NCBI GenBank assembly: GCA_016180435.1
Contig: JACPBG010000004.1
Location: forward strand, 59,660-123,659
Source of the DNA: Candidatus Sungiibacteriota bacterium
Lineage (GTDB): Bacteria > Patescibacteriota > Minisyncoccia > Sungbacterales > HO2-52-23
Direction of reading: 5' to 3'
DNA: 64,000 bases
Both the position numbers and the translations under genes were made by a program. Within the stretch, counting starts at the first letter, position 1. Each line of letters starts with the position of its first letter. Shown in pieces: positions 23-62,893 of the stretch. The notes under the pieces are model-generated. The model did no database searches, was not told where the DNA came from, and saw only the letters and a list, made by a program, of their open reading frames with translations.

Positions 23-3000
23 TTGCCTGCGGCCAAAGAACTAAGAACTAAGAACTTAGAACTTAGAAAACCAAAAAGGGAACTAAGTTCTAAATCACTA
101 AGATCTAAGTTCTATGATGCAAAATCATTTTGCATCGTTGTCCCTCCTCCCAACGTTACCGGTTCTCTGCATATGGGACACGCTCTGAATGCCGTTATTC
201 AGGACATCTTGATACGCAAAAAACGAATGGAAGGATTTAGAACTTTATGGCTTCCCGGTACGGATCATGCCGGAATTGCTACGCAAAATGTGGTGGAAAA
301 AGAACTTCGCAAACAAAATATTTCGCGCCACGAATTGGGCAGGGAAAAATTTTTGGCGAGTGTGTGGGAATGGAAAGAAAAATACGGGAATATAATTCTG
401 GACCAATTTAAAAAACTGGGTTCTTCTATGGATTGGTCGCGCGTGCGTTTTACCATGGATGAGGGGTATAAAAAAGCGGTGGAGGAGGCATTTATTCACT
501 ATTATAAAAAAGGATGGATTTACCGCGGAGAGCGCACGGTGAATTGGTGTTCGCGTTGCGCGACTTCCCTTTCGGACCTTGAAATTGAGTATCGGGAAGA
601 GAAAGGCAAATTTTACTATATTAAATACGGCCCCATGGTTTTAGGAACCGCACGGCCGGAAACAAAATTAGGGGATACTGCGCTGGCGGTAAATCCGGTA
701 GACAAACGGTATAAAAAATACATCGGGAAGGAAATTATTATTCGATCGGTGGATTCGTCGGTGGTTCGTGAAGAACAGCCCCGGCTCAAAGATATAAAAA
801 TAAAGGTGGTTGCGGATGAGGCGGCTGATCCGAAATTTGGAACAGGCGTGATTAAAGTAACGCCGGCCCATGATGCGGCTGATTTTGGAATTTATCAGCG
901 GCATCCCGAGATTCTGATTATAAAAGTAATTGGCGAAAACGGACGCATGACTAAAGAGGCGGGTGCGCGTTATGAGGGGCTGAAGGTTTCCGAGGCCCGG
1001 AAACAAATTATTGAAGACCTGGAAAAATTAGGACTCATGGATCATATCGAGGATTACACGCATAACGTCTCGTTATGTTATCGCTGCGGGACAGTGATTG
1101 AGCCGCTTCTTTCCAAACAGTGGTTCTTAAAAATGGATGAATTGGCTAAAATGGCAATTAAAGCCGCCCGCCCCGTTAGAGCCGGCTCTAATGGGGTTAA
1201 ATCCGGAAAAATTAAGTTTCATCCCAAGCGTTGGGAGAAGATTTATTTTGATTGGCTCGGCAATATCAAAGATTGGTGCATATCAAGACAGATTTGGTGG
1301 GGACACCGTCTGCCTGTCTGGTATTGTATGGGCTCGCATATCCAAACCGAAAAAAAAATGGGATTTGCCGGAGATATTGTCCCACAGGTTTTTATCAACA
1401 AAACACGGACTTACCGGTTACGCGATCACGGATTTAAAATTGGTGACCGTGTTGCATTTGAAAACAGCGCTACCGGAGAGATCTTTGGATACGCCGTAAT
1501 TACTGAAATTAAAAAAACAACCGCGGGTGAAATCGATTTAAAAGACCCGAAACATTACAAAATATATAACACCTGCGAGGAACTTATTACAGCATTCAAG
1601 CACCATCCGCAAAAAATAAATAAAGGAACAATCAGTGAAAATACTCTCGTGTGGATTTATACATATCGGTTTGAACCGGCTGATAAATCTGGATCATGCA
1701 TTCGGTTAAATCCCGTTGTAAAGGGCAACTGGTTTTTTGTGAGGCATGGAGAAACGGATTTTAATAAAGAACGTCGTATTCAGGGACAAACCGCTGGAGG
1801 CCCTCTTAATGAATTAGGAAAAAAACAAGCATATGAAACCGCTCAGCGGTTGAAGCCATATAAAATTGATTTAATTATTAGTTCGGATTTGGCGCGAGCT
1901 AAAGATACCGCCGAAATAATTGCCAAAGAGCTTAACGCCGAGATCATTTTTGATGCGGCATTGCGCGAAAGAAATTATGGCATTGCGGAAGGTACGACCC
2001 CTGAAGAGCGAAAACAGCACTACCCCGAATTAGAAGACCGTCTCAAGGAATATACCTTTGTGCCAGACGGCGGAGAAAATTTACCAACCATGGAGAAACG
2101 GATATACCGGGCGCTGGCGCAGCATAAAAAAAATCACCTCCATAAAAATATAGTCATCATATCACACGGCGCCACACTTAAAGGACTTTTTCGTAAGTTA
2201 AAAAATATACCGTTCAACGAGTTTTCCGAATTTACGATCCATAACGCCGGCGTTATTCATGTCTCCATTTCCGATCCATGTGAGAAATGCGGGAGCGATT
2301 TGGCGGAGCAAGACACTAATGTTCTGGATACATGGTTTTCATCCGCGCTTTGGCCTCTGGCAACACTTGGTTGGCCGGATAAAACGGGAGATCTTAAAAA
2401 TTTCTATCCCACCTCGGTATTATCCACGGCGCGTGATATAATCAATTTATGGGTGGCGCGCATGGTATTTTCCGGGCTGGAATTTATGGGAAAGCCGCCG
2501 TTTAAGGATATAATCATCCACGCCACCATTCTCACTAAAGATGGCAAACGGATGTCAAAATCCCTCGGAACCGGCATTGACCCCATGATTTTGATTGAAA
2601 AATACGGGGCAGATGCCGCGCGTTTCGGACTTATTTGGCAGGCCATGGGCAATCAGGATATACACTGGTCGGAGGAGCATGTGGTGGCCGGAAAAAAGTT
2701 TGCCAATAAGATTTGGAACGCCAGCAGATTCGTCCTGCTCCAAATTCCAAATTCTAAATTCCAAACTCCAAACAAATCACAAATTCCAAATTCTAAATTC
2801 CAAACATCGGCGGATAAAAAGATACTGAAACAACTGGAAAAAACAAAAAAAGATGTTTCCAAAAGCATTGATAAATATGAATTTGGACAAGCGCTACATG
2901 CGCTTTACGAATTTTATTGGCACGAGTTTTGCGATGTCTACATAGAAACAGCTAAATCACAAATCACAAATCACAAATCACAAGCAGCAACAGAAAATAT

Positions 3001-3130
3001 TTTACTTTATGTTCTCATTGAATCATTGAAACTCCTACATCCTTTTATGCCTTTTGTTACCGAAGAAATATGGAGCCATCTGCCGCTGAAAGACAAGAAG
3101 CTGTTACTCGTTGAAAACTGGCCCACATAA
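23..3130 (+). CDS. valS: valyl-tRNA synthetase carrying a ~330-aa internal insertion (ASCH/PUA-like + histidine-phosphatase domains); 5' end possibly truncated by window edge (TTG start at 23, frame open to position 2)
   Basis: PPPNVTGSLHMGHA (HIGH), KMSKSLGTGIDP, editing-domain motifs TARPETKLGDTALAVNP and GTGVIKVTPAHD, DWCISRQIWWGHRLP, DTWFSSALWPLATLGWP. Confidence 0.9.
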   Translation: MPAAKELRTKNLELRKPKRELSSKSLRSKFYDAKSFCIVVPPPNVTGSLHMGHALNAVIQDILIRKKRMEGFRTLWLPGTDHAGIATQNVVEKELRKQNISRHELGREKFLASVWEWKEKYGNIILDQFKKLGSSMDWSRVRFTMDEGYKKAVEEAFIHYYKKGWIYRGERTVNWCSRCATSLSDLEIEYREEKGKFYYIKYGPMVLGTARPETKLGDTALAVNPVDKRYKKYIGKEIIIRSVDSSVVREEQPRLKDIKIKVVADEAADPKFGTGVIKVTPAHDAADFGIYQRHPEILIIKVIGENGRMTKEAGARYEGLKVSEARKQIIEDLEKLGLMDHIEDYTHNVSLCYRCGTVIEPLLSKQWFLKMDELAKMAIKAARPVRAGSNGVKSGKIKFHPKRWEKIYFDWLGNIKDWCISRQIWWGHRLPVWYCMGSHIQTEKKMGFAGDIVPQVFINKTRTYRLRDHGFKIGDRVAFENSATGEIFGYAVITEIKKTTAGEIDLKDPKHYKIYNTCEELITAFKHHPQKINKGTISENTLVWIYTYRFEPADKSGSCIRLNPVVKGNWFFVRHGETDFNKERRIQGQTAGGPLNELGKKQAYETAQRLKPYKIDLIISSDLARAKDTAEIIAKELNAEIIFDAALRERNYGIAEGTTPEERKQHYPELEDRLKEYTFVPDGGENLPTMEKRIYRALAQHKKNHLHKNIVIISHGATLKGLFRKLKNIPFNEFSEFTIHNAGVIHVSISDPCEKCGSDLAEQDTNVLDTWFSSALWPLATLGWPDKTGDLKNFYPTSVLSTARDIINLWVARMVFSGLEFMGKPPFKDIIIHATILTKDGKRMSKSLGTGIDPMILIEKYGADAARFGLIWQAMGNQDIHWSEEHVVAGKKFANKIWNASRFVLLQIPNSKFQTPNKSQIPNSKFQTSADKKILKQLEKTKKDVSKSIDKYEFGQALHALYEFYWHEFCDVYIETAKSQITNHKSQAATENILLYVLIESLKLLHPFMPFVTEEIWSHLPLKDKKLLLVENWPT

Positions 3131-3134
3131 AAGC

Positions 3135-3166
<32 letters not shown>

Positions 3167-3257
3167 AGACATGAATGCTAAGATCTAAGTTCTTGAATGC
3201 TAAGTTCTACGTTGCATAGCAACGCTGGCCGCAGTCATAGGAATAAATATCGGATAT

Positions 3258-3989
3258 GTGCTTTTAACCTTCGTGCCTCCGGTGCTCTGGCTTCTTTTTT
3301 ATTTGCGCGAAGATCGGCATCCCGAGCCCAAAACCCTGCTTCTTCTGACATTTATCGGAGGTATGGCATCGGCTCTCCTGGCCATGTTCGCCGAGATAGT
3401 GGCGCTGGGCGGTCCGGAAATGGCGTTTTCGGATTCGTCGTTTCTGCGGCAAAATATATTTATCTTTTTTTTGGTCATAGGACTTATTGAAGAATATGCT
3501 AAGTATCTTCCGGTGAAATTCTTGGTTCTGTCGCGCTGCCGCGACCATCAAAAATGCGATTTTGACGAGCCGATCGACGCCATGATTTATATGATAACCG
3601 CGGCCCTGGGTTTTGCCGCGCTTGAAAACACCCTGTTTTTGTTCCCGTTTTTTAAGGAAAACATCTATTTGGGACTTGAGGTTGCCGCCAACCGCTTTTT
3701 GGGAGCAAATCTTCTGCACGCTTTATCCTCCGGCATCGTGGGTTACTTTCTGGCACGCGCGTTTTTCTCGCCCTACAGGCATCATTTTGTGGCGCTGGGC
3801 ATAATTACCGCCGCCTTGTTGCACACTATTTTCAATTATCTTATACTGGTAAGAGAGGTACTGCCGCAAGGAACGTTTTATATAATCTTTCTTTTATCCA
3901 CTATGGCGGTTATGGTATTCGTGGATTTTGAACGACTCAAAAAGGCGCGAATAATAGACGAATCGCCCAAAACGAATATTAGCGAATAA
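3258..3989 (+). CDS. PrsW-family intramembrane protease-like membrane protein
   Basis: multi-TM; conserved-looking motifs LIEEYAKY (EExxK), GFAALENTLF (FxxxE), LLHTIFNYL (HxxxN). Confidence 0.6.
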   Translation: MLLTFVPPVLWLLFYLREDRHPEPKTLLLLTFIGGMASALLAMFAEIVALGGPEMAFSDSSFLRQNIFIFFLVIGLIEEYAKYLPVKFLVLSRCRDHQKCDFDEPIDAMIYMITAALGFAALENTLFLFPFFKENIYLGLEVAANRFLGANLLHALSSGIVGYFLARAFFSPYRHHFVALGIITAALLHTIFNYLILVREVLPQGTFYIIFLLSTMAVMVFVDFERLKKARIIDESPKTNISE

Positions 3990-4029
3990 CGATATATTTT
4001 GCGCCAAAGGCGGATACATTAAGAAAACT

Positions 4030-4200
4030 CGCTAGTGAGTGTATGGGCGATTGAGTCCGTTTTATTTCAGACAATGGGAGGACAAAATTGCTTGGTTTTG
4101 CGCGAATGCGCGCAAAAATTTTGTCCGACCCTTAGTGAGTCCCGCGCTGGACGGGACGAATCGTGTCTGAAATAAAATGGTGAAAATCGCCATACCGAGT
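4030..4200 (+). promoter_or_regulatory. structured leader upstream of hsp20: long-range inverted repeat (ggcgatt..ttttatttcagaca / tgtctgaaataaaa..aatcgcc) plus internal hairpin GTCCCGcgctggaCGGGAC
   Basis: inverted repeats seen directly, ~4046-4073 vs 4166-4193. Confidence 0.3.
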
Positions 4201-6968: not shown

Positions 6969-8108
6969 TTAATTTTTACCGTTACGCTTTGTTCTCATCT
7001 GTTCTAAAATAGTGTTGGCCAATTCAGCAATTTCCTTCATTTGTTTATAAACCTCCTCGTTTCCTTTATATCGATTTAGATAACCGGCCGTTTTTCTAAG
7101 ATTGTTGAGGGCTTTAAAAACGAAATCTTCCAATTTATAATCCTCTGTATCCGTGTAGGATAAAGCATTTTCGAGTGAAGAAAATTCCTGCGAGTTTTCT
7201 CTTAAGTAGTTTGTAGCCAACTTATGTCCCAGAACATTATCGAGGTATTTCAAATCAGGATTTTGGGATTTAATAACAGATTTTTTAGCGCCATCCTTAC
7301 TCCCAAAGAGAAATTCAAGCAATAACCTAAGATTATTAAAATACTTTCTGGGAACTGGATTTTCAGAAAATATCTCCTTTTGTTTGTTTCTTATACCGAG
7401 ATACTTTCTAGTATTGTCATAACCTAGAATTGTGTAGAGGTGGGAAAAGTAAAATCTTCTCAACTCAACTTCTTCTGCTTTGAAATATCCCTCCTTTTCT
7501 GCCTGCTCTAAAACCCGGAGACCGTTGCACATTTTGATAACGGTCAGGTGTCTGTCTCCGATTCTCTCGGCAATCTTCTCAATCGGTATTTTATATTCTT
7601 TGTGAACCCGAAGTGCATATACGGCCTTACTGTAGGAATCCCATTCTTGTGGGCCATTTATATGCCTAAAGCCCAGATAGGTCCAAAGCGTTTGACGATC
7701 CGGGTATATTGCTACCGGTATCTGTTTAGTAAGTTGTGTCTTTAACTTCTCACTAATCTTTTTTTCTGATTTTAAAAGCGTTTTTATTGCAGCTAATCTT
7801 CTATTACCTTCAATTACAACAAATTTGCCCTTGTGTTTTTTGGATTCAACAGTGAGTAAGGGCTCGGTGTTATAAAAGCCATTTTTTTCAAAGGAATCAA
7901 TCAGCTCGTCCAGATGCATTTCTTTTTGTAGCTTACTAAGAATCTCGTTGTCAGATGCATTTTTTGACAAGCCAGCAAATCGTGGATTCTCGCTATCAAG
8001 TAGCAATCTATCCAACTTAACATAGTTGATTTGGATGGGATCTTGCAGAGTTTTGGTTTTTTGTTCGTTCATATTTTTATTCTTCAGAATATTCCGAATA
8101 CTCATCAA
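6969..8108 (-). CDS. ParB/Srx-like nuclease-domain protein with long C-terminal extension
   Basis: LLLDSENPRF and VIEGNRRLAAIKTLL resemble ParB N-terminal domain boxes (NPR... / (V/I)xEG(E/N)RRxRAA). Confidence 0.5.
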   Translation of the reverse strand: MMSIRNILKNKNMNEQKTKTLQDPIQINYVKLDRLLLDSENPRFAGLSKNASDNEILSKLQKEMHLDELIDSFEKNGFYNTEPLLTVESKKHKGKFVVIEGNRRLAAIKTLLKSEKKISEKLKTQLTKQIPVAIYPDRQTLWTYLGFRHINGPQEWDSYSKAVYALRVHKEYKIPIEKIAERIGDRHLTVIKMCNGLRVLEQAEKEGYFKAEEVELRRFYFSHLYTILGYDNTRKYLGIRNKQKEIFSENPVPRKYFNNLRLLLEFLFGSKDGAKKSVIKSQNPDLKYLDNVLGHKLATNYLRENSQEFSSLENALSYTDTEDYKLEDFVFKALNNLRKTAGYLNRYKGNEEVYKQMKEIAELANTILEQMRTKRNGKN

Positions 8109-9195
8109 GAATTGTATCCGTCATATGTTCCAACCTTTTCTCTTTTGCTAATTCATAAATGGAGTCATAGGGAATATATGAACAGAGCTCCGACAAAGGC
8201 CCTTTCTCCATGACCGCAAAGATTGGGCGAGAAATTTGTTTAAAAACTTCATTTCGTCTGTTGTTGGGCGCAACAATATGAATTTTAATTTCTATATTTG
8301 GCAAAAGAGAAAGTAGATCGGCCATTCTTAAAATACCGGAGTAAATCGACGTCGTTCCCTCAACTTCAAACGCTCGAATTATTGTACGCCCTTGAATCCA
8401 AAGAACGTCGATATTTTTAATCGTTCTTAATGTGATGTCATCAAAAGAAAATGGAAGCTCCTCCAATAAGACATTTTCTTTCGGCTTCCATACTTCTAAT
8501 ACTCCCACGCGATCATTTCTTGGTAACCACACCTTAAAACCTAATTTCTCTCCAATTTCCGAGAGTTTGGCCTGAACCCTGATCGATTCCCGCTCCTCGC
8601 CTACTGGTACTACTTCTTGTGCTTCTTTAGTGGGTTCTTCATCTTCCGGAACTGACACAGAAACTTCCTTTTTGCCAGCCAGACGCATTTTTGAAGATTT
8701 TAATTTCTTTTCATCATTTTCACTAAATTTATATTCAACGAGTTTTTGAGATTGTTCAATGAGTATTTTTTCCAAAAACTCGCAATCGGTTTTTGGCCAC
8801 AAACGAGGACTCGAAAAAATCACATACGTCCATTTGTTGCTATCTTTGGCGAATTCTTTTGTAAAAGAAAGATTATTCCAAATAAAGTCCTCGTGAACAG
8901 GAATCGCTTTTTCAAAAGGTAACCAAACTATAGGTTTTACATTAAAGCGCAAAATAAATGGATCATCTTCTTTTTGAAACAGAGGTGTCTTATCTATAAA
9001 ATATTTACTGGTAATTTCCAAAACACCAACGAAGCGTTGTATCCTTGTTACATAGCAAATAAACTTGTCGCCCGGGCCAATATTTTGATTTTCTACATAA
9101 GTTTTTCTGGAAATCCGAAAACCGCTTACATCCTGTTTGGATTGTTCAAATGCTCGTGCGGTTTCCGGAGAAAATAGATCAATAAAGTAACTCAT
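8077..9195 (-). CDS. EVE/PUA-like N-terminal domain fused to C-terminal putative PD-(D/E)xK-like nuclease domain (type IV / modification-dependent restriction-like)
   Basis: N-term GPGDKFICYVTRIQRFVGVLEITSKYF...DPFILRFNVKPIVWL fits PUA-like beta-barrel pattern; C-term IDVLWIQGRTIIRAFEVEGTTSIYSGILRMADL nuclease-like core; acidic low-complexity linker. Confidence 0.45.
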   Translation of the reverse strand: MSYFIDLFSPETARAFEQSKQDVSGFRISRKTYVENQNIGPGDKFICYVTRIQRFVGVLEITSKYFIDKTPLFQKEDDPFILRFNVKPIVWLPFEKAIPVHEDFIWNNLSFTKEFAKDSNKWTYVIFSSPRLWPKTDCEFLEKILIEQSQKLVEYKFSENDEKKLKSSKMRLAGKKEVSVSVPEDEEPTKEAQEVVPVGEERESIRVQAKLSEIGEKLGFKVWLPRNDRVGVLEVWKPKENVLLEELPFSFDDITLRTIKNIDVLWIQGRTIIRAFEVEGTTSIYSGILRMADLLSLLPNIEIKIHIVAPNNRRNEVFKQISRPIFAVMEKGPLSELCSYIPYDSIYELAKEKRLEHMTDTILDEYSEYSEE

Positions 9196-10900: not shown

Positions 10901-10938
10901 CTCCTTTTCAATTAGAAATCAATTTTTGTGGGTTTTGG
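10901..10938. repeat. 38-bp inverted repeat, left copy (tccttttcaattagaaatcaatttttgtgggttttggg)
   Basis: perfect reverse complement at 12105-12142. Confidence 0.8.
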
Positions 10939-11040
10939 GGCGTTACTGACTTGCCGCTAGGTAGGCCGGAGTTACCCGAGTATGATGTATAAAATGATTT
11001 GCCACAAACAAATTTATTGTTACACCCCTGCGAACTAATT

Positions 11041-12048
11041 TTATCGCATTCTTAACTCGCACGCTTCTCGTGAGCTCATGGACTTGCCGTCAACAATAAA
11101 AGAATGTTTTATAAGCGAATTATCAAAGGTGCTGCACGGATTCGGATCAGAATAAGAAGTTTTATAAGCTAGGATACACTTTTTAAAGTTTGGCGCATAA
11201 ACAAAAAGTTCGTTGCAAATAGTCACGTCTCTTGATTTTATGGCGTAAGCAACTATACAAGCACCTGTCGCATCTTCCGGTAAATCGATTTTTATATTGA
11301 GATCATTTTTGGGCTCTGGTCTAATTTTATACTTTGAAGAGGTCAAGCGCGCTACTTCTGGTTTTTGGCACTCAACAACTGATTTTGCGGCATAAATCCT
11401 GTTGTAGAAAATAGCTTCTGCAAAAGTATAGTTAAAAATATATGCCCCCATCAATATTACTATTAAAAATATGAACCCTATTCTGTAGTAAAAAAATGAT
11501 TTTACTTTACTAATACCGGATATAACTCCTGCTACCCACATCATGCCTGCCAGGTAAGCCGTGTATAAAATATAGGACATTGTATTAACTAAATATAAAG
11601 GGGTTTCTACATCAAGAAAGAATTTTAAGTTTTCGGCACCGACTAGAAATATGTTTAACAAATAATGCCTTAAAAGCGTTATGCCGACTCCATCATAAAT
11701 ATTAGAATCTCTAACCGCTGGTATTAAAAGTAGTACCAAGAATAATATTGCTAAAAAATATTTTTTGGTAAGAAATTTTTTAGTTGTAAAAAATATTACT
11801 AGTGCATAACCTACCACAAGTCCAAGATTTATTAAGGCGTTAAATGGAGCCCAAAGAATACTAGGAAACAAGGCTGTGTAAAATACAAATCCACATCCTC
11901 CAAAGGAGCAACCATAATAAATCAAAGGCGCTGAAAGCGCTATAATAAACGAGAAGAAAAACAATCTTTTCCTAGAATATACAAACTTTTCTGTAATAGT
12001 TCCAGTGGACATTAATTTAAGAATAACTTGTCGGTCTTTTATTATCAA
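11041..12048 (-). CDS. AT-rich polytopic membrane protein with Cys-rich C-terminal extracytoplasmic region; hypothetical
   Basis: ~8 TM helices, C-terminal CxxxC-rich tail; markedly lower GC than neighbours. Confidence 0.55.
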   Translation of the reverse strand: MIIKDRQVILKLMSTGTITEKFVYSRKRLFFFSFIIALSAPLIYYGCSFGGCGFVFYTALFPSILWAPFNALINLGLVVGYALVIFFTTKKFLTKKYFLAILFLVLLLIPAVRDSNIYDGVGITLLRHYLLNIFLVGAENLKFFLDVETPLYLVNTMSYILYTAYLAGMMWVAGVISGISKVKSFFYYRIGFIFLIVILMGAYIFNYTFAEAIFYNRIYAAKSVVECQKPEVARLTSSKYKIRPEPKNDLNIKIDLPEDATGACIVAYAIKSRDVTICNELFVYAPNFKKCILAYKTSYSDPNPCSTFDNSLIKHSFIVDGKSMSSREACELRMR

Positions 12049-12104: not shown

Positions 12105-12142
12105 GCCCAAAACCCACAAAAATTGATTTCTAATTGAAAAGG
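12105..12142. repeat. 38-bp inverted repeat, right copy
   Basis: reverse complement of 10901-10938. Confidence 0.8.
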
Positions 12143-12194
12143 AAATTCCGCGCGCCCACCTTCTCCGCTAAAGGCGGGTTGCGGGTTTTTGGAG

Positions 12195-12298
12195 CGAGTC
12201 CCAGCATGATAATACTTTCCCGATTTTTGGGGGAGGTTGCCTCGCCGCTTCGCGGCTCGGCTCGGCGGCTTTGCGCAAGGCGCAAAGCCAAAAAATCC
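12195..12298. repeat. ~104-bp inverted repeat, left copy (upstream of recombinase start)
   Basis: reverse complement of 13775-13876 with few mismatches. Confidence 0.8.
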
Positions 12299-12361
12299 CA
12301 CGGCGCGGAAAACGAAAAGGAAGCGGATAAGGAATATCTAAAATCAATAATTTAAGAAATT

Positions 12362-13972
12362 ATGCTCAAACCAAAATATTTTCTCTACGCTCGCAAGAGC
12401 ACCGAGGATGATGACAAACAAGTAATGTCTATTGAAGCACAGCTTTTTGAATTGCGTGAATTTGCCAAAAGAGAAAATATTGAAATTCTTGAAGAATTTA
12501 CCGAGGCGAAAAGCGCAAAGACGCCGGGACGAGAAGTATTTAATTTAATGATGGGAAAAATTGAAAAATTGGAGGGAGTTGGAATCCTCGCGTGGCACCC
12601 AGATCGTCTCGCTAGAAATTCTGTTGATGGTGGTAAAATCGTTTATTTTGTTGATACGCAAAAAATAATTTCTTTGCGCTTTCCGCAATTTTGGTTTGAG
12701 CCAACTCCGCAAGGGAAATTTATGTTGCAAGTGGCGTTCGGACAGAGCAAATATTTTTCTGACAACTTGGTGGAAAATGTAAAGCGCGGTATCCGCCAAA
12801 AACTCCGCCGTGGCGAGTGGTTGACGCTCGCACCCTTTGGCTATGTGAACAATCCGAAAACGAGACAAATTGAACCGCACCCTACCAAATCAAAAATTGT
12901 CGTGCGAGCGTTTGAGGAGTTTGCCAAAGGAACGCATACGCTCAAAAGTATGTCGGAGTTTTTGGCGGAGCTTGGCGTTGAAACAAAGAACCGAACGCCA
13001 CTTGCGAAATGCAGTATTCACCACTTACTTACCAATCGCGCCTATCTCGGTTTTGTCGCGCACCACGGCGAATATCACGAGGGCACATTTCCGCCAATTC
13101 TTTCCCTCGCAACCTTTGAAGCCGTGCAGGAAGTATTGAAAAGGAAAGCGAAACCTCGCAAATCCAAACAGAGGCACAATTTCCCTTTTACCGGACTACT
13201 CACCTGCGGAGAGTGCGGCTCGGCGATCACCGCGCAATTCGCGCACGGCAATGGCGGAACATATCGCTACTATCGGTGCACGCGGAAAAAGGGAAATTGC
13301 GCTCAAAGATATTTGCGAGAGGATTTACTCGTTTCGCAATTAAAAGCACGGCTTCAAAGCGTTGCGCTTTGCGATGAGTGGATAAAGAAAATGTTAGCGA
13401 AAGTAAATGAATGGGAAAAAGAAAAAGTCCACTCATCGCAAACATTCGTCCAAAATCTGGAAACCAAAAGAACGGCCACGCAAGAGAAACTGGATAAACT
13501 TGTCTCGGCGTATATTGACGGCGACATACCCAAAGAAAACTATTTGAAAAAGAAAGAGGAGTTATTGAAGCAAAAAGTTTCTTTTGCGTCCCAAAAATCG
13601 GATTTTGGACGAACGGGAAAGAATTGGATCGAACCCTTGCGGAGTTGGATTTTAGATATACAGAAAGCCGAAAAATTGTCGCAGAGCGACAATTTTGAGG
13701 ACATTAAGGCGTTTGTCCAAAAAGTTGGAACGAACCATCAACTTTTGGACAAATCCGCTTCATTTTCGTTTTCTGCGCCGTGGGATTATGCGGCTTTGCG
13801 TCTCGCGCAAAGCCGCCAAGCCGAGGGGCGAAGCGGCGAGGCAACCTCCCCCAAAAATCGGGAAAGTATTATCATGTCCCCTCGGGAAGAATTGAACTCC
13901 CATTTTCTCCTTAGGACGGAGACGCTCTGTCCGTTGAGCTACGAGGGGGTTTGGATATTCGCTAAAATATAG
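12362..13972 (+). CDS. large serine recombinase (resolvase/invertase catalytic domain + recombinase domain + zinc ribbon); annotated ORF reads through right repeat and tRNA-Arg so true stop may be as given or protein C-terminus is fortuitous read-through
   Basis: YARKSTEDDDKQ (catalytic Ser region), LAWHPDRLARN, VKRGIRQKLRRGEWLTLAPFGY, CGECGS...YRYYRC. Confidence 0.85.
   Translation: MLKPKYFLYARKSTEDDDKQVMSIEAQLFELREFAKRENIEILEEFTEAKSAKTPGREVFNLMMGKIEKLEGVGILAWHPDRLARNSVDGGKIVYFVDTQKIISLRFPQFWFEPTPQGKFMLQVAFGQSKYFSDNLVENVKRGIRQKLRRGEWLTLAPFGYVNNPKTRQIEPHPTKSKIVVRAFEEFAKGTHTLKSMSEFLAELGVETKNRTPLAKCSIHHLLTNRAYLGFVAHHGEYHEGTFPPILSLATFEAVQEVLKRKAKPRKSKQRHNFPFTGLLTCGECGSAITAQFAHGNGGTYRYYRCTRKKGNCAQRYLREDLLVSQLKARLQSVALCDEWIKKMLAKVNEWEKEKVHSSQTFVQNLETKRTATQEKLDKLVSAYIDGDIPKENYLKKKEELLKQKVSFASQKSDFGRTGKNWIEPLRSWILDIQKAEKLSQSDNFEDIKAFVQKVGTNHQLLDKSASFSFSAPWDYAALRLAQSRQAEGRSGEATSPKNRESIIMSPREELNSHFLLRTETLCPLSYEGVWIFAKI
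13775..13876. repeat. ~104-bp inverted repeat, right copy, lying inside 3' end of recombinase ORF and abutting tRNA-Arg(CCT) 3' end
   Basis: reverse complement of 12195-12298. Confidence 0.8.
13877..13948 (-). tRNA. tRNA-Arg (anticodon CCT); overlapped by 3' end of recombinase ORF
   Basis: cloverleaf by hand: acceptor CCCCTCG/CGAGGGG, D-arm GCTC..GAGC, anticodon loop GTCCTAA, T-loop TTCAATT; backbone very similar to tRNA-Arg(TCT) at 17102. Confidence 0.7.
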
Positions 13973-15063: not shown

Positions 15064-15447
15064 TTAGGCCGTGCCAGCCGCCTTTTTTACGCGCTCTACA
15101 ATTTCCGGGAGCGCGAAATTTGCTTTTACAAGATAATCAATCGCGCCCAGGCGTTTGGCTTCTTCAATATCGGTTTCTTCCGAGAGGTTTGAAAGAAACA
15201 TGGCTTTCATTTCCGGTCCTCCGGGTTCGCGCCGTATTTTGCGCAGTGTGTCAAAGCCGTTTTGGTCCGGAAGCAGTACGTCAAGTAGAATAATATCCGG
15301 CGCGGATTCTTTGAATTTTTCAACACCCTCGGCTCCGGTACGCGCCACCGAAATTTCAAAACCCGCATTGGAGAATTCATGCGTCAAAAGTTCCACCATA
15401 AAGGCGTCGTCCTCAACCAATAGAATTTTATGAGAAGTTTCTGCCAT
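15064..15447 (-). CDS. single-domain CheY-like response regulator (receiver domain); start taken at MAETSHKILLVEDD rather than longest ORF (15573)
   Basis: ILLVEDD...DIILLDVLLPDQNGFD...KAMFLSN receiver-domain pattern. Confidence 0.75.
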   Translation of the reverse strand: MAETSHKILLVEDDAFMVELLTHEFSNAGFEISVARTGAEGVEKFKESAPDIILLDVLLPDQNGFDTLRKIRREPGGPEMKAMFLSNLSEETDIEEAKRLGAIDYLVKANFALPEIVERVKKAAGTA

Positions 15448-15451
15448 AAAT

Positions 15452-15571
15452 GGGATTGTTGCCGAATGCGCTTTCGTAGCGAAAATGATGAATTTTGAGA
15501 CAAAATCGCTGAATAAACTTGGCGGCCTATCTGAAAGATAAGCCAAGAAGATGGTATTCGGCAACAGTCCC
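15452..15571 (-). ncRNA. ~120-nt structured 5' leader element immediately upstream of response-regulator start codon; second copy at 62732-62893
   Basis: outer stem GGGATTGTTGCC/GGCAACAGTCCC, internal hairpins CGCTttcgtAGCG and TTGGC..TATCtgaaaGATA..GCCAA; conserved blocks shared with 62732-62893. Confidence 0.45.
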
Positions 15572-15629
15572 AAATATAGTGTATAACTTTATTGGATTAA
15601 AATCAAAAACCGGTTTTGCACAAAACTTG

Positions 15630-48134: not shown

Positions 48135-48190
48135 TCAGTCGATCTTTTGATTGTTAACATCATACTACGATCGTATATAGTTGTTAACAA
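48135..48190. repeat. ~45-bp palindromic site GTTAACA-n3-TACTACGATCGTATATA-n2-TGTTAACA, copy 1
   Basis: near-identical direct copy at 48820-48868; each copy internally palindromic. Confidence 0.75.
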
Positions 48191-48222
48191 TTAACTTGGT
48201 TTGATCAATATATTCCTAAAAA

Positions 48223-48804
48223 TCAGTTTTTGAGTAAATTCTCTATTGTTCCACTTTTTTGTATGCTCAAAATATGAACTTTATTTTTGAGACGCAATTC
48301 ATCCAGCCGTTCAATAAATTGCTGGGGAAGCGGATTAAAGCCGAGCCACACGCTTTTTTGCAGGTGCCGAAATCCGCAGGCGGTCAATTCCATGCGCACT
48401 ATATCACGCTTTCGTCTTTCTCGTTCCGGAATGTCGAAAATAACCAGACGCGGGATACCATCTTTTTCCGGTATTTCCAGGACAATTTCCTGTCGCTTAT
48501 GCAATCGCAGTTTACCTTTTGTGGTAATATGCCACCGGGAATTTCGTGAGGATCCATTGCGTCCAACCAGTCCATGTCGCTTTAGACGGGAAAGAATGGC
48601 GGAGAGCGTGCGGGGAGAAACCTCGGGACTGGAATCTAATCCGAAAAGGCGGCGGCCAGATGATGTGAAGGAATATTGAGGAGGGAAGAAGGCGTCAAGA
48701 AATACTTTTCCTCCCTCTGCGAGTTTCTCCAATACAAGCCGCGTGATTGAGCGATTTTTTACATATACGCGGGAAGAGGGTTTTTGCATGTAGATTTTTA
48801 CCAT
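48223..48804 (-). CDS. winged-HTH protein with C-terminal Cas2-like/PaaX-C-like domain
   Basis: N-term wHTH-like LVLEKLAEGGKVFLDAFF; C-term LVIFDIPERERRKRDIVRMELTACGFRHLQKSVWLG resembles Cas2 core (vYDi...RR...k.L...G.r.Q.SVf). Confidence 0.4.
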   Translation of the reverse strand: MVKIYMQKPSSRVYVKNRSITRLVLEKLAEGGKVFLDAFFPPQYSFTSSGRRLFGLDSSPEVSPRTLSAILSRLKRHGLVGRNGSSRNSRWHITTKGKLRLHKRQEIVLEIPEKDGIPRLVIFDIPERERRKRDIVRMELTACGFRHLQKSVWLGFNPLPQQFIERLDELRLKNKVHILSIQKSGTIENLLKN

Positions 48805-48819
48805 AAAAATAGATATTAT

Positions 48820-48868
48820 GGACTGTTAACAATGTACTACGATCGTATATAACTGTTAACATTTGATG
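48820..48868. repeat. ~45-bp palindromic site copy 2
   Basis: direct repeat of 48135-48190. Confidence 0.75.
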
Positions 48869-48942: not shown

Positions 48943-49368
48943 TCATTTCAGTATGTCAATTCCCATTGAGCGGGCCGTACCCTCGATTATTTTTTCTGCG
49001 GCCTCGGGGTTCTCGGCGTTTAAATCCTCCATTTTGCGCTCGGCGATCTTTCGGATGTCTTCGCGGGTAACACGCCCCACCTTCTTTTTATTCGGCTCTC
49101 CGGACCCCTTTTCCACGGATGCGGCTTTGCGCAGCATGTCGGATGCCGGCGGAGTTCGTAATTTAAACTCAAAACTACGGTCTTCAAAGATCGTAATTTC
49201 CACGGGCACAATTTCTCCCTCCATTTTTCCGGATGCCTCGTTATATTTTTTTACAAAGTCCCCGATATTGATGCCGTGCGGCCCGAGAGCCGTGCCTACC
49301 GGCGGCGCCGGAGTGGCTTTGCCGGCCGGAAGCTGGAGTTTAAGTTTTACTTTAATTGGTTTGGCCAT
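48943..49368 (-). CDS. rplK: 50S ribosomal protein L11 (start at [12 protein letters not shown])
   Basis: [45 protein letters not shown]. Confidence 0.9.
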
Positions 49369-49369
49369 G

Positions 49370-49420
49370 TTTTTACAGATTAACACAGATTTCTCACAGA
49401 TGTTCACAGATCACAGATAA
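49370..49420. repeat. array of CACAGAT heptamers (x5, irregular spacing)
   Basis: inverted counterpart ATCTGTG array at 49803-49845. Confidence 0.7.
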
Positions 49421-49847
49421 ATTGTTTTCTATCGTTTGTATGGATATATCTGCAGGGCTTTAACGTTTTTTCTGCGAAATTTACCGCATACCCAAGTTCA
49501 TATTTGCTTATTTTTAGATACTCTAAGAGTTGTCGTCCGGCTTCAATCATTTTATGCGGCGGGAGCGCCTTTAGTTCTACCAGCACTTTATCATTTATAA
49601 GATAGTCGGGCACAAAGAAACCAATTCTTTTTCCATTAGTCACAGAATGCAGTGTTATTTTGGGCTTCGCGATAAACGAAATTTTAGCTTGTTCGAGTTC
49701 CTCTTGAAAGGCGCGGTCATATATAATTTCTCTATGCCCAGATCCGTATTTATTATGCGCCGCAAACAGGCAACCGATTATTTTATGACATAATTCTTTT
49801 TCAGGAAATCTGTGATCTGTGTTGATCTGTGTAGAATCTGTGGGCAT
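49404..49847 (-). CDS. GxxExxY-family protein (PD-(D/E)xK-like), inserted between nusG and rplK
   Basis: N-term [30 protein letters not shown] and C-term [10 protein letters not shown] are the family hallmarks. Confidence 0.7.
49803..49845. repeat. array of ATCTGTG heptamers (x4-5)
   Basis: inverse of 49370-49420 array. Confidence 0.7.
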
Positions 49848-49853
49848 CGGTGT

Positions 49854-50399
49854 TTATAGTTTTTTTATTTGTAATGAATCCAGTTCTACGGGCGTGTCGC
49901 GGCCGAATACGTTAACAAGCACCTTGATCTTGCCGCGGTCCTGGTCCACTTCCGATACTTTGCCGTCAAAGTCCTTAAAGGGGCCGTCGGTAATTTTTAT
50001 CGGATCCCCGATCAATACATCAATTTTGAATTTGGGTTCCTCCTCTCCGACGCGATTCAGTAAAACCTCCATTTCTTCGGGTGAAAGCGGAGTGGGCGTG
50101 GTGCCGGCGCCGATAAATCCGGTAACGCGGGGAGTATTTCGCACTACGTACCAAGAGTCGTCGGTCACGACCATCTCCACCAAAACATACCCGGGATAAA
50201 TTTTTTCTTCAACTACGCGCCGTTTCCCGCTTTTAATTTTTATTTTTTTCTCCACCGGCACGAGCACGTTGAAAATTTTATCCTCCATACCCATGGATTC
50301 GATGCGTTGTTTTAAGTTTCGCGCAACCGCATCCTCATACCCGGAATAGGTATGGACCGCGTACCAATTGCGCCCGAATTCCGATGTTTGTTTAGGCAT
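49854..50399 (-). CDS. nusG: transcription termination/antitermination factor NusG
   Basis: NGN domain WYAVHTYSGYEDAV..., KOW GDPIKITDGPFKDFDGKVSEVD. Confidence 0.9.
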   Translation of the reverse strand: MPKQTSEFGRNWYAVHTYSGYEDAVARNLKQRIESMGMEDKIFNVLVPVEKKIKIKSGKRRVVEEKIYPGYVLVEMVVTDDSWYVVRNTPRVTGFIGAGTTPTPLSPEEMEVLLNRVGEEEPKFKIDVLIGDPIKITDGPFKDFDGKVSEVDQDRGKIKVLVNVFGRDTPVELDSLQIKKL

Positions 50400-50412
50400 A
50401 TCGTGCTTTGCA

Positions 50413-50529
50413 CCGCAATGATGCCAATCTACAAATGAAATGCTAATCTACAAATTGCGAATAAATTCTTTTTACAGTATTCGCGATTCGCTAGATTGGC
50501 ATTAAATTCGCATCGGATTGGCATCACTG
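50413..50529 (-). ncRNA. ~117-nt structured repeat element occupying the whole nusG 5' region (between secE stop and nusG start); copy A
   Basis: outer stem TGATGCCAATC/GATTGGCATCA, inner GCGAAT/ATTCGC hairpins; paralog at 50729-50859. Confidence 0.45.
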
Positions 50530-50715
50530 CTAAAGAATGAATGTATTCAAAATAAACTGGAATAAATAATCCAGCCCTCCCAAAAATACGGCAATGACCA
50601 GGCTTACGGCAACCACGGTTACTGTATAGCGAATCGTGTCTTCGCGATTCGGCCAAGTTACTTTTTTGAGTTCAAGCCTGGTTTCTTTAAGAAAAGTAGT
50701 AAGACGTTCCAACAT
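50530..50715 (-). CDS. secE: preprotein translocase subunit SecE (start at MLERLTTF)
   Basis: 61 aa, single C-terminal TM, KKVTWP motif. Confidence 0.8.
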   Translation of the reverse strand: MLERLTTFLKETRLELKKVTWPNREDTIRYTVTVVAVSLVIAVFLGGLDYLFQFILNTFIL

Positions 50716-50728
50716 ACCGCGCTTCGCG

Positions 50729-50859
50729 CCGCAATGATGCCAATCTATAAATCTTATGCTAATCCACAAATTGCAAATGAATATTCTCGATAGACTCGAA
50801 TAATAATTATTCGCAATTCGCTAAATTGGCATTAAATTCGCATCGGATTGGCATCACTG
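50729..50859 (-). ncRNA. ~131-nt structured repeat element copy B, 14 nt upstream of secE start
   Basis: direct repeat of 50413-50529. Confidence 0.45.
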
Positions 50860-51109
50860 TGGCCTTTTTTAAAAGGCCCGCAGGCCCTTAGTATTTCAAG
50901 CATACTGCAATATGGCGCAAGATGTCAATAGTCCCTAAATATCAAGATTTTTCACTGCTTTTGCGTGTGTCTGAACCCCGCACTAAAATTTCGACCGCCG
51001 CAATCTTGTTCTTTGGTTTGAGAAGGAATCTTTATTCACGAGAATTTCGCTCCGGCTTAGTCGGGGCGGCAACGAAAAGTCGAAATTTAGTTACGGGGCA
51101 AGTAAATTT

Positions 51110-53218
<2,109 letters not shown>

Positions 53219-54547: not shown

Positions 54548-54660
54548 GATTTTTGTATCATATCACTTTTGGGTAAAAAATAAAGTATGCCCACTTTTTC
54601 CGTTTGAGCGGGAAAAGTGGGCATACTTTGAAGTAAAAATTTCTACCGGGATTCAATTTT

Positions 54661-60008: not shown

Positions 60009-61419
60009 CGTCGGTATCATCTATTTTCCGGATAAGGATTTGTTTGGCCGCGTCCGGAAAACCGCCCCTGATTTCTATTATCAGGGGCAGAAACCGGCCC
60101 GCAGATGCGAGATCCGCCAGGGTCTTATCCGGGGTTAAAAATAAATTTCTACTTATGTGCTCGGCTAGCCACGTTAAAAAATGGTTGATATCCAAAATAT
60201 GGGAGTCCGCGGGCTGGATTAATATTCTTAATTCACCAAGCAATTTTCCGCCGGTTTGTTTTTCCCGTACTTCTCCGCGCCACTCCTTAACGTATGATTT
60301 TAGGGAGCCCATGACCCTTTCCAGTTCCGTTCTCACGATAAGCGCGCCTCCGTATCGGATGTAGTCGTAATTTTTTCGGCCCGCCAGAAAAAGCGTGAAT
60401 TTCGCTCCGCAGGGGCATTTTTCTTTCACGACTCGTCCCATGTCGCCGGTGCGATAACGCAGCAGCGCCCATCTGTGGTTGAGGTGGGTGACCGCAATTT
60501 CGCCGCAACCGTTTTCATCCATATCCACCAATTCTATAATAGTACCATTTAAAAAATTGGGGTGGTACACGTCCTGGCGTCCATATCTTCGTTTCAGTTC
60601 CGGGCATGAGTGAGAAATCTTTCCGGCTTCGGTCATGGTGTAATTTAGATTAAGTCTCGCATTATGGAAAAATTCATGAATAATGCGGCGCTGGGTGGCG
60701 CTCAAGAAATCCCCACTCAAGTCAATAATTTGGATTTTAGAAGACAATGCTTCGGCCGCCGTAAAGACAGATGTGAATCTGATAAGATTTGCGGGGAAAC
60801 TGAAAATATTATCTGCGCCAAATTCTTCGAGGGCCTGCCGCATTTTGATGTTAAGACGCGCGGGGTCGAGTATAAGTGTTTGTAAAACCCCATTTGGTTC
60901 GCGGCGATTGCCCAAAATGTTTAGCAGAACGCCGCGTAGGCAAATCATAAATGGCCCTTCAATCCAAAGAGTGCGTTTTCTGCCGGAGCGCGCCAGGCCG
61001 ACCGGCATTAAAAAAAGAGGCGGTTCGTTTAGCGAAACGGTGCCGGAAGTGGCGCGCAGAATAAAATGACGGGTTTTATTTTTGATTTCCTCCCGCAGAT
61101 CAATCAGCCGCGGGTTTAGGCCAATTTTAAAAAAATCATCTTTAACCAGAAACGGAACGCGTTTCCACTGTTCTTTATCCATTTTTCCGGCTGTGAACCG
61201 AAAATTATGGTTGCCGAAATGTCTTTGCCAAAATTCGAGCTTCTGCAGTTCGGTTAAAAATTTTCCTAATTCGGACAAGGTAAGTTGTTGGGATTTTTGG
61301 GAAATAAATCCCCCTACCATGAATTTACGTTCGGGGCGTTCTTTTTTATGCGCGGTCGTGTCCATGGTCTTTTTAATAAAGTTGTTTCCAATCCATATGG
61401 CGGTATTTTTTGCTTTCAA
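60004..61419 (-). CDS. PaaK/CapK-like adenylate-forming enzyme (phenylacetate-CoA ligase / F390 synthetase family)
   Basis: ILRATSGTVS (cf. TSGTTGKP), YRTGDMGRV (YRTGD motif). Confidence 0.6.
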   Translation of the reverse strand: MKAKNTAIWIGNNFIKKTMDTTAHKKERPERKFMVGGFISQKSQQLTLSELGKFLTELQKLEFWQRHFGNHNFRFTAGKMDKEQWKRVPFLVKDDFFKIGLNPRLIDLREEIKNKTRHFILRATSGTVSLNEPPLFLMPVGLARSGRKRTLWIEGPFMICLRGVLLNILGNRREPNGVLQTLILDPARLNIKMRQALEEFGADNIFSFPANLIRFTSVFTAAEALSSKIQIIDLSGDFLSATQRRIIHEFFHNARLNLNYTMTEAGKISHSCPELKRRYGRQDVYHPNFLNGTIIELVDMDENGCGEIAVTHLNHRWALLRYRTGDMGRVVKEKCPCGAKFTLFLAGRKNYDYIRYGGALIVRTELERVMGSLKSYVKEWRGEVREKQTGGKLLGELRILIQPADSHILDINHFLTWLAEHISRNLFLTPDKTLADLASAGRFLPLIIEIRGGFPDAAKQILIRKIDDTDD

Positions 61420-62731
61420 AAATCTTTTCTAAAATTTCTGAAGAAACAAACGGTTCAATCTCTTCGAGGGTCTTGTAAATTCCCCCATTCCCAAAGCGGC
61501 TGCCTAAAAATCTCGGCGCATCGGATATGCGCCAGACACTGCGGTTAAAAGTCAAATAATATAGAGATGGATAGGACCGGGCAATAAAATTATAAAGCGG
61601 GGAGGGATTTTGGCCGGCCCGGGCCTGGACCTTTGACATAACCATATAAGACCGTTCGTGCTGTACCCCGGTCCATAAAATCAGGTCCAGCATACTTGAT
61701 TTCTGGCTAAGAACCGCCTGATGGTCTAAAAATGTGCGTCTCCAGTTTAAGTCCGTTAGGGTGGCCAAATCAGCATAATAACGAAGGTCTAGAACCGAGT
61801 AAAACGAGGTTACGTCTTGGTGCCAATAACGGACGCCGCGCTTGAGCGAGGGCTCGTATATGGCGCGGGTTCGGTTGTCAAACGGACTTTGTGCCGCAGG
61901 CAGGGCGCTTTCGGTTTTGGTTAATTCCAGGAAAAAACGGCAATCCGCCAGTGAAATATGAAAACTGCGGCGATTACGGTTGTCTCGGGTAACATAAGTG
62001 AAAAAGTTATGGATTCTGGGCGTGCCGTCCAAATGAGCGAATTCATAAAAAATAGGGCCGTATTTCTCAACCAGGCCGGATATATGTTTTTCTTCCAGAC
62101 GGAGAATTTCTTGATATTTTTCGGAAAGAGACGGCCCCTGAATTTTCCAGGGAATGGGGTCAGCCCCGGGAGGTTGCGCATCCGAAAAATTTATACTTTT
62201 GAAATCGCCGCGTTCAAAAATATTGCGGCGGCGTTTCACCTCCTTCTTTAACTCTTTTAGATTGGAGTAAATGACTTCAATTGATTTAAGAAACTCGGCG
62301 AGTGAAATGCTATTGGTATGAAAATAAAAAATCGAGGTGTCCGGCGGAATATGTTCTTGCCGGCATAAATCCAAAATGGAATCGCGGTAGGCCGTTAGGT
62401 TAAGTTCCAACGCGGAAACAGTTTTTTCGTGCGTGCGCAGGAGCAATTCGGCATTTTTTTCTGAGGGGCTGATTATAAATCGGCGCCGTTGGCGCTCGCT
62501 TTCCAAAAATCTTTTTAAGAAACCGATGGGATGCAGTGTTTCCGTGAAAGGATGCCAAAAACAAAACCAGCGGTGCGACGGGCGCCATACCCGTTCCACC
62601 TCGCGCGTTAAAAATTCCAGTTCCTCCAGCGCCCACTTGGCGTTGTCAATATCCAGCCCCTCGGCCGCAAACAAGGGGTCGCGGAGCGTGAAGTTGTGGA
62701 ACGATTTTATTTTTTTATCCATTGATTTCAT
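61373..62731 (-). CDS. hypothetical protein, paralog of 58325..59962
   Basis: shared C-terminal domain; preceded by structured leader copy 2. Confidence 0.5.
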   Translation of the reverse strand: MKSMDKKIKSFHNFTLRDPLFAAEGLDIDNAKWALEELEFLTREVERVWRPSHRWFCFWHPFTETLHPIGFLKRFLESERQRRRFIISPSEKNAELLLRTHEKTVSALELNLTAYRDSILDLCRQEHIPPDTSIFYFHTNSISLAEFLKSIEVIYSNLKELKKEVKRRRNIFERGDFKSINFSDAQPPGADPIPWKIQGPSLSEKYQEILRLEEKHISGLVEKYGPIFYEFAHLDGTPRIHNFFTYVTRDNRNRRSFHISLADCRFFLELTKTESALPAAQSPFDNRTRAIYEPSLKRGVRYWHQDVTSFYSVLDLRYYADLATLTDLNWRRTFLDHQAVLSQKSSMLDLILWTGVQHERSYMVMSKVQARAGQNPSPLYNFIARSYPSLYYLTFNRSVWRISDAPRFLGSRFGNGGIYKTLEEIEPFVSSEILEKIFESKKYRHMDWKQLY

Positions 62732-62893
62732 GGGTCTGTTGCCGAATGCGCTTTCGTCGCGAAATTTCAGAATTTCGAGGCAAAATCATTGAACAAATTT
62801 GGCGGTTTATCTGAAAGATAAGCCAAGAAATTTTGAGATGATTTTGACCGGAATTCTGAAATTGCAGTAGAAATGGCATTTGGCAACAGACCC
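62732..62893 (-). ncRNA. structured 5' leader element copy 2 (162 nt; copy-1 core plus ~40-nt insertion), begins directly after start codon of 61373..62731
   Basis: GGGTCTGTTGCC...GGCAACAGACCC outer stem; conserved blocks gccgaatgcgctttcgt, ttggcggtttatctgaaagataagccaagaa. Confidence 0.45.

Follow-up and report, generated by a model that had tools for sequence, protein, structure and literature searches.

A probable family of palindromic repeats on either side of secE in a Candidatus Sungbacteria genome

Why should two neighboring genes of one operon, secE and nusG, each be preceded by a copy of the same long hairpin? The question is raised by a 64-kb stretch of DNA, here called the window; NusG homologues assign its host to Candidatus Sungbacteria, part of the Parcubacteria within the candidate phyla radiation (CPR). 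[quoted passage not shown] The comparisons described here indicate that the copies probably belong to a small family of non-coding palindromic repeats of the CPR, comparable to MITEs, REPINs, and ERIC sequences, rather than constituting a regulator specific to secE and nusG. Most descriptions of small palindromic repeats concern proteobacteria, firmicutes, and cyanobacteria. No description of such repeats in CPR/Patescibacteria was found in the literature searched, and to our knowledge the repeats reported here, though of a known kind, form a new family and are the first such repeats described for this lineage.

The two copies and their operon

All genes of the region, namely gyrB, secE, nusG, a GxxExxY ORF, and rplK, are carried on the minus strand (Table 1). 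Copy B of the element is placed between a small GC hairpin and the secE ATG, and the stem foot of copy A overlaps the secE stop codon (50530-50532). No tRNA-Trp or other tRNA lies near the two copies, and neither secE nor nusG has a Shine-Dalgarno sequence, which is present in only 14 of the 49 genes of the window. The same strain has also been assembled independently (L100; GyrB 100% identical), and that assembly ends 30 nt into copy B, in keeping with the tendency of assemblers to stop at repeats.

Table 1. Coordinates of features in the secE region of the window and location of related copies at other loci
Feature	Location	Strand	Remarks
gyrB	51110-53203	minus	
Promoter-like site, TTGACA-18-TATGCT	50899-50928	minus	upstream of copy B; position conserved in all relatives
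Small GC hairpin and UUUUAAAAAA	50865-50890	minus	start of secE transcript; kept in 9/9 loci
Copy B, whole homologous segment	50713-50861	minus	secE 5′ leader
Copy B, long imperfect hairpin	50732-50859	minus	termini CAGTGATGCCAATC...GATTGGCATCATTGC; covariance model 124 bits minus, 55 plus
Copy B, tail	50716-50731	minus	mini-hairpin GCGC-GAA-GCGC (50719-50729), then GGU; adjoins secE ATG (50713-50715)
secE, 61 aa	50530-50715	minus	identified by Pfam; two copies on either side, direct orientation
Copy A, whole homologous segment	50397-50531	minus	fills secE-nusG spacer
Copy A, long imperfect hairpin	50415-50530	minus	covariance model 137 bits minus, 69 plus
Copy A, tail	50400-50414	minus	mini-hairpin GUGC-AAA-GCAC (50403-50413), then GAU; adjoins nusG ATG (50397-50399)
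nusG, 181 aa	49854-50399	minus	identified by Pfam
GxxExxY / PD-(D/E)XK ORF (49404-49847) in 44-nt inverted arms	49375-49851	minus	fills nusG-rplK spacer
rplK	48943-49368	minus	
Copy L007 = L029	Sungbacteria RIFCSPLOWO2_01_FULL_47_10		between two CPR pilus genes
Copy L009 = L045	Parcubacteria GW2011_GWA2_45_30		between 174-aa ORF and atpA
Copy L013 = L046 = L051	Parcubacteria GW2011_GWA2_45_30		between uridine-phosphorylase-like and HD/dGTPase-like genes
Copy L011	contig labelled Saccharibacteria		contig end, after stop codon of 392-aa ORF
Copies L031, L039, L071	metagenome contigs		more diverged copies; L039 between divergent genes

The small GC hairpin is itself a constant feature of the locus. 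In each of the nine Sungbacteria loci compared (the window, L001, L003, L005, L092, L094, L096, L097, and L099), it occurs a few bases past the conserved promoter and precedes U4-6 and an A run, and its stems vary among these loci in a compensatory way (GGCC/GGCC vs. GCCCC/GGGGC). It is terminator-like in shape and could serve as an attenuator or 5′ stabilizer of the secE-nusG operon. Farther upstream, the gyrB stop codon is directly followed by an imperfect long-range stem on the minus strand (50963-51108), with ~25 bp around a large internal loop and a z score of only -2. A 73-aa plus-strand ORF (50922-51143) matches no family and is likely to be spurious.

The duplication recorded in the first-pass annotation, two copies ~85% identical located 5′ of secE and nusG, was borne out by closer comparison. 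Copies A and B are 86% identical, with 14 extra nucleotides forming an additional mini-stem at the hairpin tip of B. The outer stem that had been noted in both, TGATGCCAATC/GATTGGCATCA, extends to 15-18 nt and provides terminal inverted repeats of the form GCA(A/G)TGATGCCAATC, a hallmark of MITEs; the element termini are GCAATGATGCCAATC. A 19-nt core occurs exactly twice in the 64-kb window, against an expectation of 0.04, and the terminal 11-mer is over-represented in the window. Within each arm are two 16-nt sub-repeats at a spacing of 19 nt, for example 50421-50436 and 50440-50455, which are identical at 15 of 16 positions. The element, a hairpin of 116-128 nt with a 16-nt tail, is small and non-coding, as MITEs are, with stops interrupting all six frames.

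On the mRNA strand, each copy folds as one long hairpin, with a predicted free energy of -57.9 kcal/mol (z -9.2) for A and -66.7 kcal/mol (z -6.9) for B. The ATG lies 15-16 nt from the foot of the long stem in both cases, in agreement with the original estimate of ~15 nt, and the homology between the copies continues past the stem foot through UUGCG and a 4-bp mini-hairpin, up to 3 nt before the ATG. One compensatory change distinguishes the mini-hairpins of A and B. This mini-hairpin does not generally mark start codons in the genome, as two of its three matches in the window are inside the elements.

Covariation, which had been put forward as a check, was examined in the stem. In the six close copies, no stem pair of the 36 has changed on both sides, and five stem positions are conserved G-U pairs on the window mRNA-sense strand. 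Once three diverged copies were added, in an alignment that was fitted to the model, double changes appeared at 7 of the 36 pairs and G-U exceeded A-C by 30:10. Double changes of this sort are not evidence for a regulatory RNA, because any DNA palindrome maintains pairing. The strand that is mRNA sense in the window folds better than its complement by 2-13 kcal/mol, and its covariance-model score is about twice as high. Taken together, these results suggest that one single strand, either RNA or single-stranded DNA, is under some constraint. The better-folding strand is the mRNA sense in six of seven clear cases, a bias that is not significant.

Orthologous sites in relatives and copies at other loci

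The orthologous locus was compared in eight Sungbacteria relatives, with NusG proteins 85-90% identical to that of the window, and profile-HMM and covariance-model searches found the element at the secE/nusG positions of none of them. In the closest relative (L099; GyrB 90%), the promoter, the small hairpin (identical), secE (~82%), and nusG align with the window, and the sequence differs wholly in two places, from the small hairpin to the secE ATG and from the secE stop to the nusG ATG. Across the relatives, the secE-nusG spacer may be as short as 11 nt with no insert (L003), 65 nt with a small hairpin (L001), or occupied by a 128-aa ORF (L005), and several unrelated long hairpins are found there in L092, L094, L096, L097, and L099. 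The distance from the small hairpin to the secE ATG similarly varies, from 10 nt in L001 to 149 nt in the window.

In most relatives some hairpin fills both positions flanking secE, a higher frequency than in the window, where ~20% of gene junctions have strong hairpins. Strongly structured spacers (z ≤ -4) occur in 5/9 loci and strongly structured leaders in 3/9, and they represent at least four or five unrelated sequence families. A long spacer hairpin is orthologous between L092 (9828-10000) and L096 (9792-10000) and exhibits compensatory changes (CAGTTTTAC/GTAAAACTG vs. CAATTTTGC/GCAAAATTG). Two causes are conceivable for this recurrent filling: the highly expressed operon may be a hot spot for insertion, or structure may be selected for there, the latter being considered unlikely. 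The spacers of L092 and L096 also contain a conserved second hairpin, TTTGTRGCGAAA...TTCGCTACAAGC, located after the long one.

The first-pass annotation had proposed a search for additional copies. Genome and metagenome collections were scanned solely for both termini at hairpin spacing, and chance matches were removed. The same termini were recovered from four genome contigs and several metagenome contigs, where the copies lie between unrelated genes, and within the collections scanned true relatives of the element came from CPR assemblies only (Table 1). Two copies are present in the 64-kb window, and at least three are found on two contigs of the GW2011_GWA2_45_30 assembly. The contigs bearing L013, L046, and L051 are ~80% identical at the nucleotide level to window positions 122-4083, indicating that a close relative of the window organism bears copies at other loci. 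Several dispersed copies and presence or absence between relatives, both expected of a MITE, were thus observed, the latter in the absence of the element at the orthologous sites of L099.

Wherever genes are co-directional, which applies to all copies except L039, the element takes the whole spacer and leaves 1-10 nt. The upstream stop codon is 0-4 nt away, or coincides with the terminal TGA of the element, and the start codon follows 3-10 nt beyond. The copy before atpA (L045) has the tail, the mini-hairpin, and the 3-nt gap to the ATG that are seen in copies A and B, and because this gene is unrelated to secE and nusG, the tail must belong to the element. Copy A shares 89% identity with L045 and 86% with copy B. 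Since A is no closer to its neighbor than to L045, local duplication between A and B was rejected in favor of separate insertions. Several copies depart from the basic form: one in L009 (5782-5989) has a nested palindrome of ~110 nt inserted in the tip, L071 has a tandem expansion of arm units, L029 is a one-and-a-half copy, and L046 is inverted.

Phage and plasmid collections and viral contigs yielded no match to the element, one chance match aside, and the 78 metagenome pattern matches were mostly chance occurrences or other hairpins. Among the latter, an unrelated AT-rich hairpin family from one metagenome (Ga0209679; L023, L025, L033, L034, L047, L059, and L078) has the same 10-nt termini, GATGCCAATC/GATTGGCATC, extended by GGCACACC and enclosing variable interiors.

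Competing explanations and a proposed mechanism

A gene-specific cis-regulatory leader RNA, duplicated before both genes and responding to NusG, SecE, or ribosomal-protein feedback or acting as a riboswitch, would suit the location of the copies immediately before two start codons, their stable folding on the mRNA strand, and the compensatory change in the mini-hairpin. This half of the original annotation did not survive the comparisons and is now very improbable, being largely refuted by the absence of the element at eight orthologous loci, including that of the near relative L099, by its occurrence before atpA and other unrelated genes, and by the failure of six close copies to reveal any doubly changed stem pair. 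Its architecture is that of a plain long hairpin with nothing resembling a pocket, and Rfam at the gathering threshold returned tRNAs and no family for the element, a permissive threshold adding miRNA-precursor look-alikes. The conservation of the sequence itself, which includes positions pairing only as G-U, invites a DNA-level interpretation instead. The ATT(C/G/A)GC and ATGC(C/T)AATCTACAAAT units are candidate sites for a nucleoid protein, recombinase, or transposase, and the hairpin would be a by-product of their inverted layout; the regularly spaced sub-repeats of each arm and the expansion of arms by whole units are consistent with such a protein-binding array. However, the copies have no associated candidate protein, a duplex site would not be expected to have one strand that folds better than the other, and the elements are inside transcription units, so that a binding array seems improbable, if less so than a leader RNA.

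A more substantial competitor is that the hairpins are selected operon punctuation. According to this explanation, Sungbacteria require long hairpins at two places, the secE leader and the junction between secE and nusG, and interchangeable palindromes are recruited or retained there, possibly as an RNase III processing site, an mRNA-stabilizing barrier, or a device setting the SecE:NusG ratio. The structured spacers and leaders of the relatives, which derive from unrelated families, the compensatory changes in the orthologous hairpin of L092 and L096, the conserved G-U pairs on the mRNA strand, and the excess of hairpins around secE over the rate at window junctions all argue for it. Nevertheless, the 11-nt spacer of L003 and the 10-nt leader of L001 show the hairpin to be dispensable, the same element resides between unrelated genes elsewhere, hairpin fillers are common across the window, and in a DNA palindrome compensatory change is no proof that the RNA has a function. 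Selected punctuation is therefore regarded as unlikely, though it is the foremost of the alternatives. The preferred explanation, a family of mobile-type palindromic repeats, has difficulties of its own. Copy number is low, no target-site duplication is apparent in the flanks of nine copies compared by eye, and no parent insertion sequence or transposase with matching ends was found in the window or the 100 loci. Furthermore, the fold bias toward one strand hints at a constraint that purely selfish DNA would not need, and the hairpin excess around secE could be due to selection for structure rather than neutral insertion. The MITE proposal of the first-pass annotation is thus upheld as regards a palindromic, dispersed, small, and non-coding element with terminal inverted repeats; a target-site duplication or a partner transposase was not found. 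Likeness in kind to MITEs and REPINs is supported, and strict membership in either class is not established.

Proximity to start codons, which gave the locus its regulatory appearance, follows from the small size of the native spacers. These may be as short as 11 nt (L003) or, in the leader, 10 nt (L001), and an insertion that spares both genes must abut a stop and a start. Short native spacers account for the position of the copies without targeting or function, and the same account applies to the second palindromic family of the window and to the GxxExxY cassette between nusG and rplK.

A mechanism for the repeat family can be proposed along these lines. The element is an inverted repeat in which each arm has two ~16-nt sub-repeats, one subfamily having added the 3′ tail with its mini-hairpin of the GCGAAGC type, and a putative enzyme would move or copy it. 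Copies would insert, or persist, where tightly packed operons leave very short spacers, and would thereby come to span the space from stop to start codon, or from the 5′ end of a transcript to the start codon. The promoter-like site upstream of copy B would transcribe both copies within the secE-nusG mRNA, each as an imperfect double-stranded stem of ~45-50 bp. In RNA the element is probably tolerated and, by analogy with Correia and REP/ERIC sequences, might be cleaved by RNase III or influence mRNA stability. Closure of the hairpin would join its two ends and leave the secE stop and nusG start near each other despite the 130-nt insert, which may explain why the insert is tolerated, and translational coupling could persist.

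A bolder extension of this scheme is that Sungbacteria, and perhaps the CPR generally, make use of mobile, interchangeable palindromes to punctuate their operon junctions and leaders. The hairpins would then maintain the adjacency of stop and start codons and provide a processing or stability site, the tail would supply genes devoid of a Shine-Dalgarno sequence with a portable 5′ module, and the positions around secE would be filled because structure is selected for while sequence turns over freely. This extension is doubtful, somewhat more so than selected punctuation by itself.

Several candidates for a partner enzyme or a different identity of the element were considered and rejected. The window has no Y1 transposase. 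The closest relative, L099, encodes a RAYT-like Y1 protein (7898-8563; 39.7 bits against a family cut-off of 80), and this gene is flanked by unrelated GTGCAACAC-NNN-GTGT palindromes and has no repeats in common with the element. It is located between a large ORF and pheS, and the syntenic spot of the window (54582-54629) has only a hairpin with a 21-bp stem. A serine recombinase gene of the window (12362-13972) likewise has no repeats in common with the element and possesses 124-nt inverted repeats of its own. IS630/Tc1-like ends (CAGTG) with TA duplication were discounted on finding that the flanks of the copies are not TA. The ends of both copies lack the GTT or AAC core (GTTRRRY/RYYYAAC) of an integron attC site, and the genes they flank are core genes. 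The stems are AU-rich and are followed by UUGCGG rather than a U run, in disagreement with an intrinsic terminator.

Comparable repeats and other palindromes

The ERIC or IRU sequences of enterobacteria, reportedly described by Hulton et al. in 1991 as imperfect palindromes of about 127 bp, resemble the element in their size and wholly palindromic nature, location in transcribed intergenic regions within or beside operons, occurrence in either orientation, presence or absence between relatives, and lack of a known transposase. They are unrelated to it in sequence, belong to another phylum, number 30-700 copies where two or three were seen here, and do not have the mini-hairpin tail abutting an ATG. 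The Correia elements (CREE) of Neisseria are also non-coding sequences (100-155 bp) with terminal inverted repeats, often just upstream of genes and co-transcribed with them. Unlike the CPR element, for which no target duplication is apparent, they duplicate a TA target; they also contain promoter and IHF motifs, and their ends are unrelated to those of the CPR element. Decay of mRNA is altered by ERIC elements, and RNase III cuts Correia elements at their terminal repeats (PMC10969869).

REPINs are mobilized by RAYT tyrosine transposases. They are extragenic and non-autonomous and do not duplicate their target (PMC3116915). Like them, the element consists of two inverted units and a spacer that form a hairpin in single-stranded DNA or mRNA, and it is extragenic. 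GTAG precedes its ATTGGCAT/ATTAGCAT units on one strand, and a close relative of the window organism (L099) has a RAYT-like gene. Unlike REPINs, the element has units that are not palindromic, GTAG on the 3′ arm of the canonical strand only, and a low copy number. A cognate RAYT gene flanked by the same repeats is found neither in the window nor in L099, where other palindromes flank the gene.

Cassettes of the intervening-sequence type, with inverted arms around a four-helix-bundle (S23p) or GxxExxY ORF, provide a comparison within the same operon. They have the same architecture as the element, and their arms of short repeats fill a spacer exactly, but the element has no ORF and the arms have no sequence in common. 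Derivation of the element from such cassettes is a conjecture. Intervening-sequence stems of this type in rRNA are removed by RNase III. The GxxExxY cassette between nusG and rplK has arms composed of ACAGAT-type short repeats, and L099 has the same cassette; in other relatives, this junction (L003, 10605-10997; L094, 10600-10902; L092, 10602-10829) contains a 23S_rRNA_IVP four-helix-bundle ORF, a 75-aa ORF, or nothing.

The element is in itself an ordinary kind of thing. What lends it importance is the setting, in that CPR genomes are tiny and tightly packed, and repeats that occupy whole spacers in an essential, highly expressed operon matter. They can mislead annotation through false N-terminal extensions, such as a 79-aa secE ORF, and cause assembly breaks (L100). 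They are relevant to the processing and translation of polycistronic mRNAs in organisms where most genes lack a Shine-Dalgarno sequence, and could serve as strain markers.

Strong hairpins are present at about one-fifth of the gene junctions of the window, and many of these intergenic hairpins are unrelated to each other. A second palindromic family (15446-15577 and 62732-62893) is unrelated to the element and consists of two copies that are 85% identical. Its terminal arms measure 22-24 nt and end within 0-4 nt of two start codons, one belonging to a response-regulator gene (15064-15447) and the other to a 452-aa ORF (61373-62731). The parallel with this family that the first-pass annotation had drawn is apt, as both are palindromes that abut start codons.

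Larger inverted repeats occur as well. Those of 124 nt (92% complementary) at 12205-13876 flank the large serine recombinase ORF, which contains Resolvase, Recombinase, and zinc-ribbon domains and lies beside tRNA-Arg (13876-13948); the region probably represents an integrated mobile element. A 323-aa ORF (11041-12012) with no Pfam match is surrounded by a perfect 38-nt inverted repeat (10902-10939 and 12106-12143). Downstream of rplK, a PaaX-like ORF with a Cas2-like domain (48223-48804) has similar palindromes on both sides (48147-48194 and 48821-48864), whose arrangement, TGTTAACA...TACGATCGTA...TGTTAACA, has the look of an operator. Heptamer tandem repeats, AACTTAG/AACTAAG, are found at 35-68 and 3116-3177 as part of a spacer hairpin (3131-3257), and similar hairpins built of short units (AAATTCG, ACGAAT) are found in L013, L045, L046, L005, L097, and L099.
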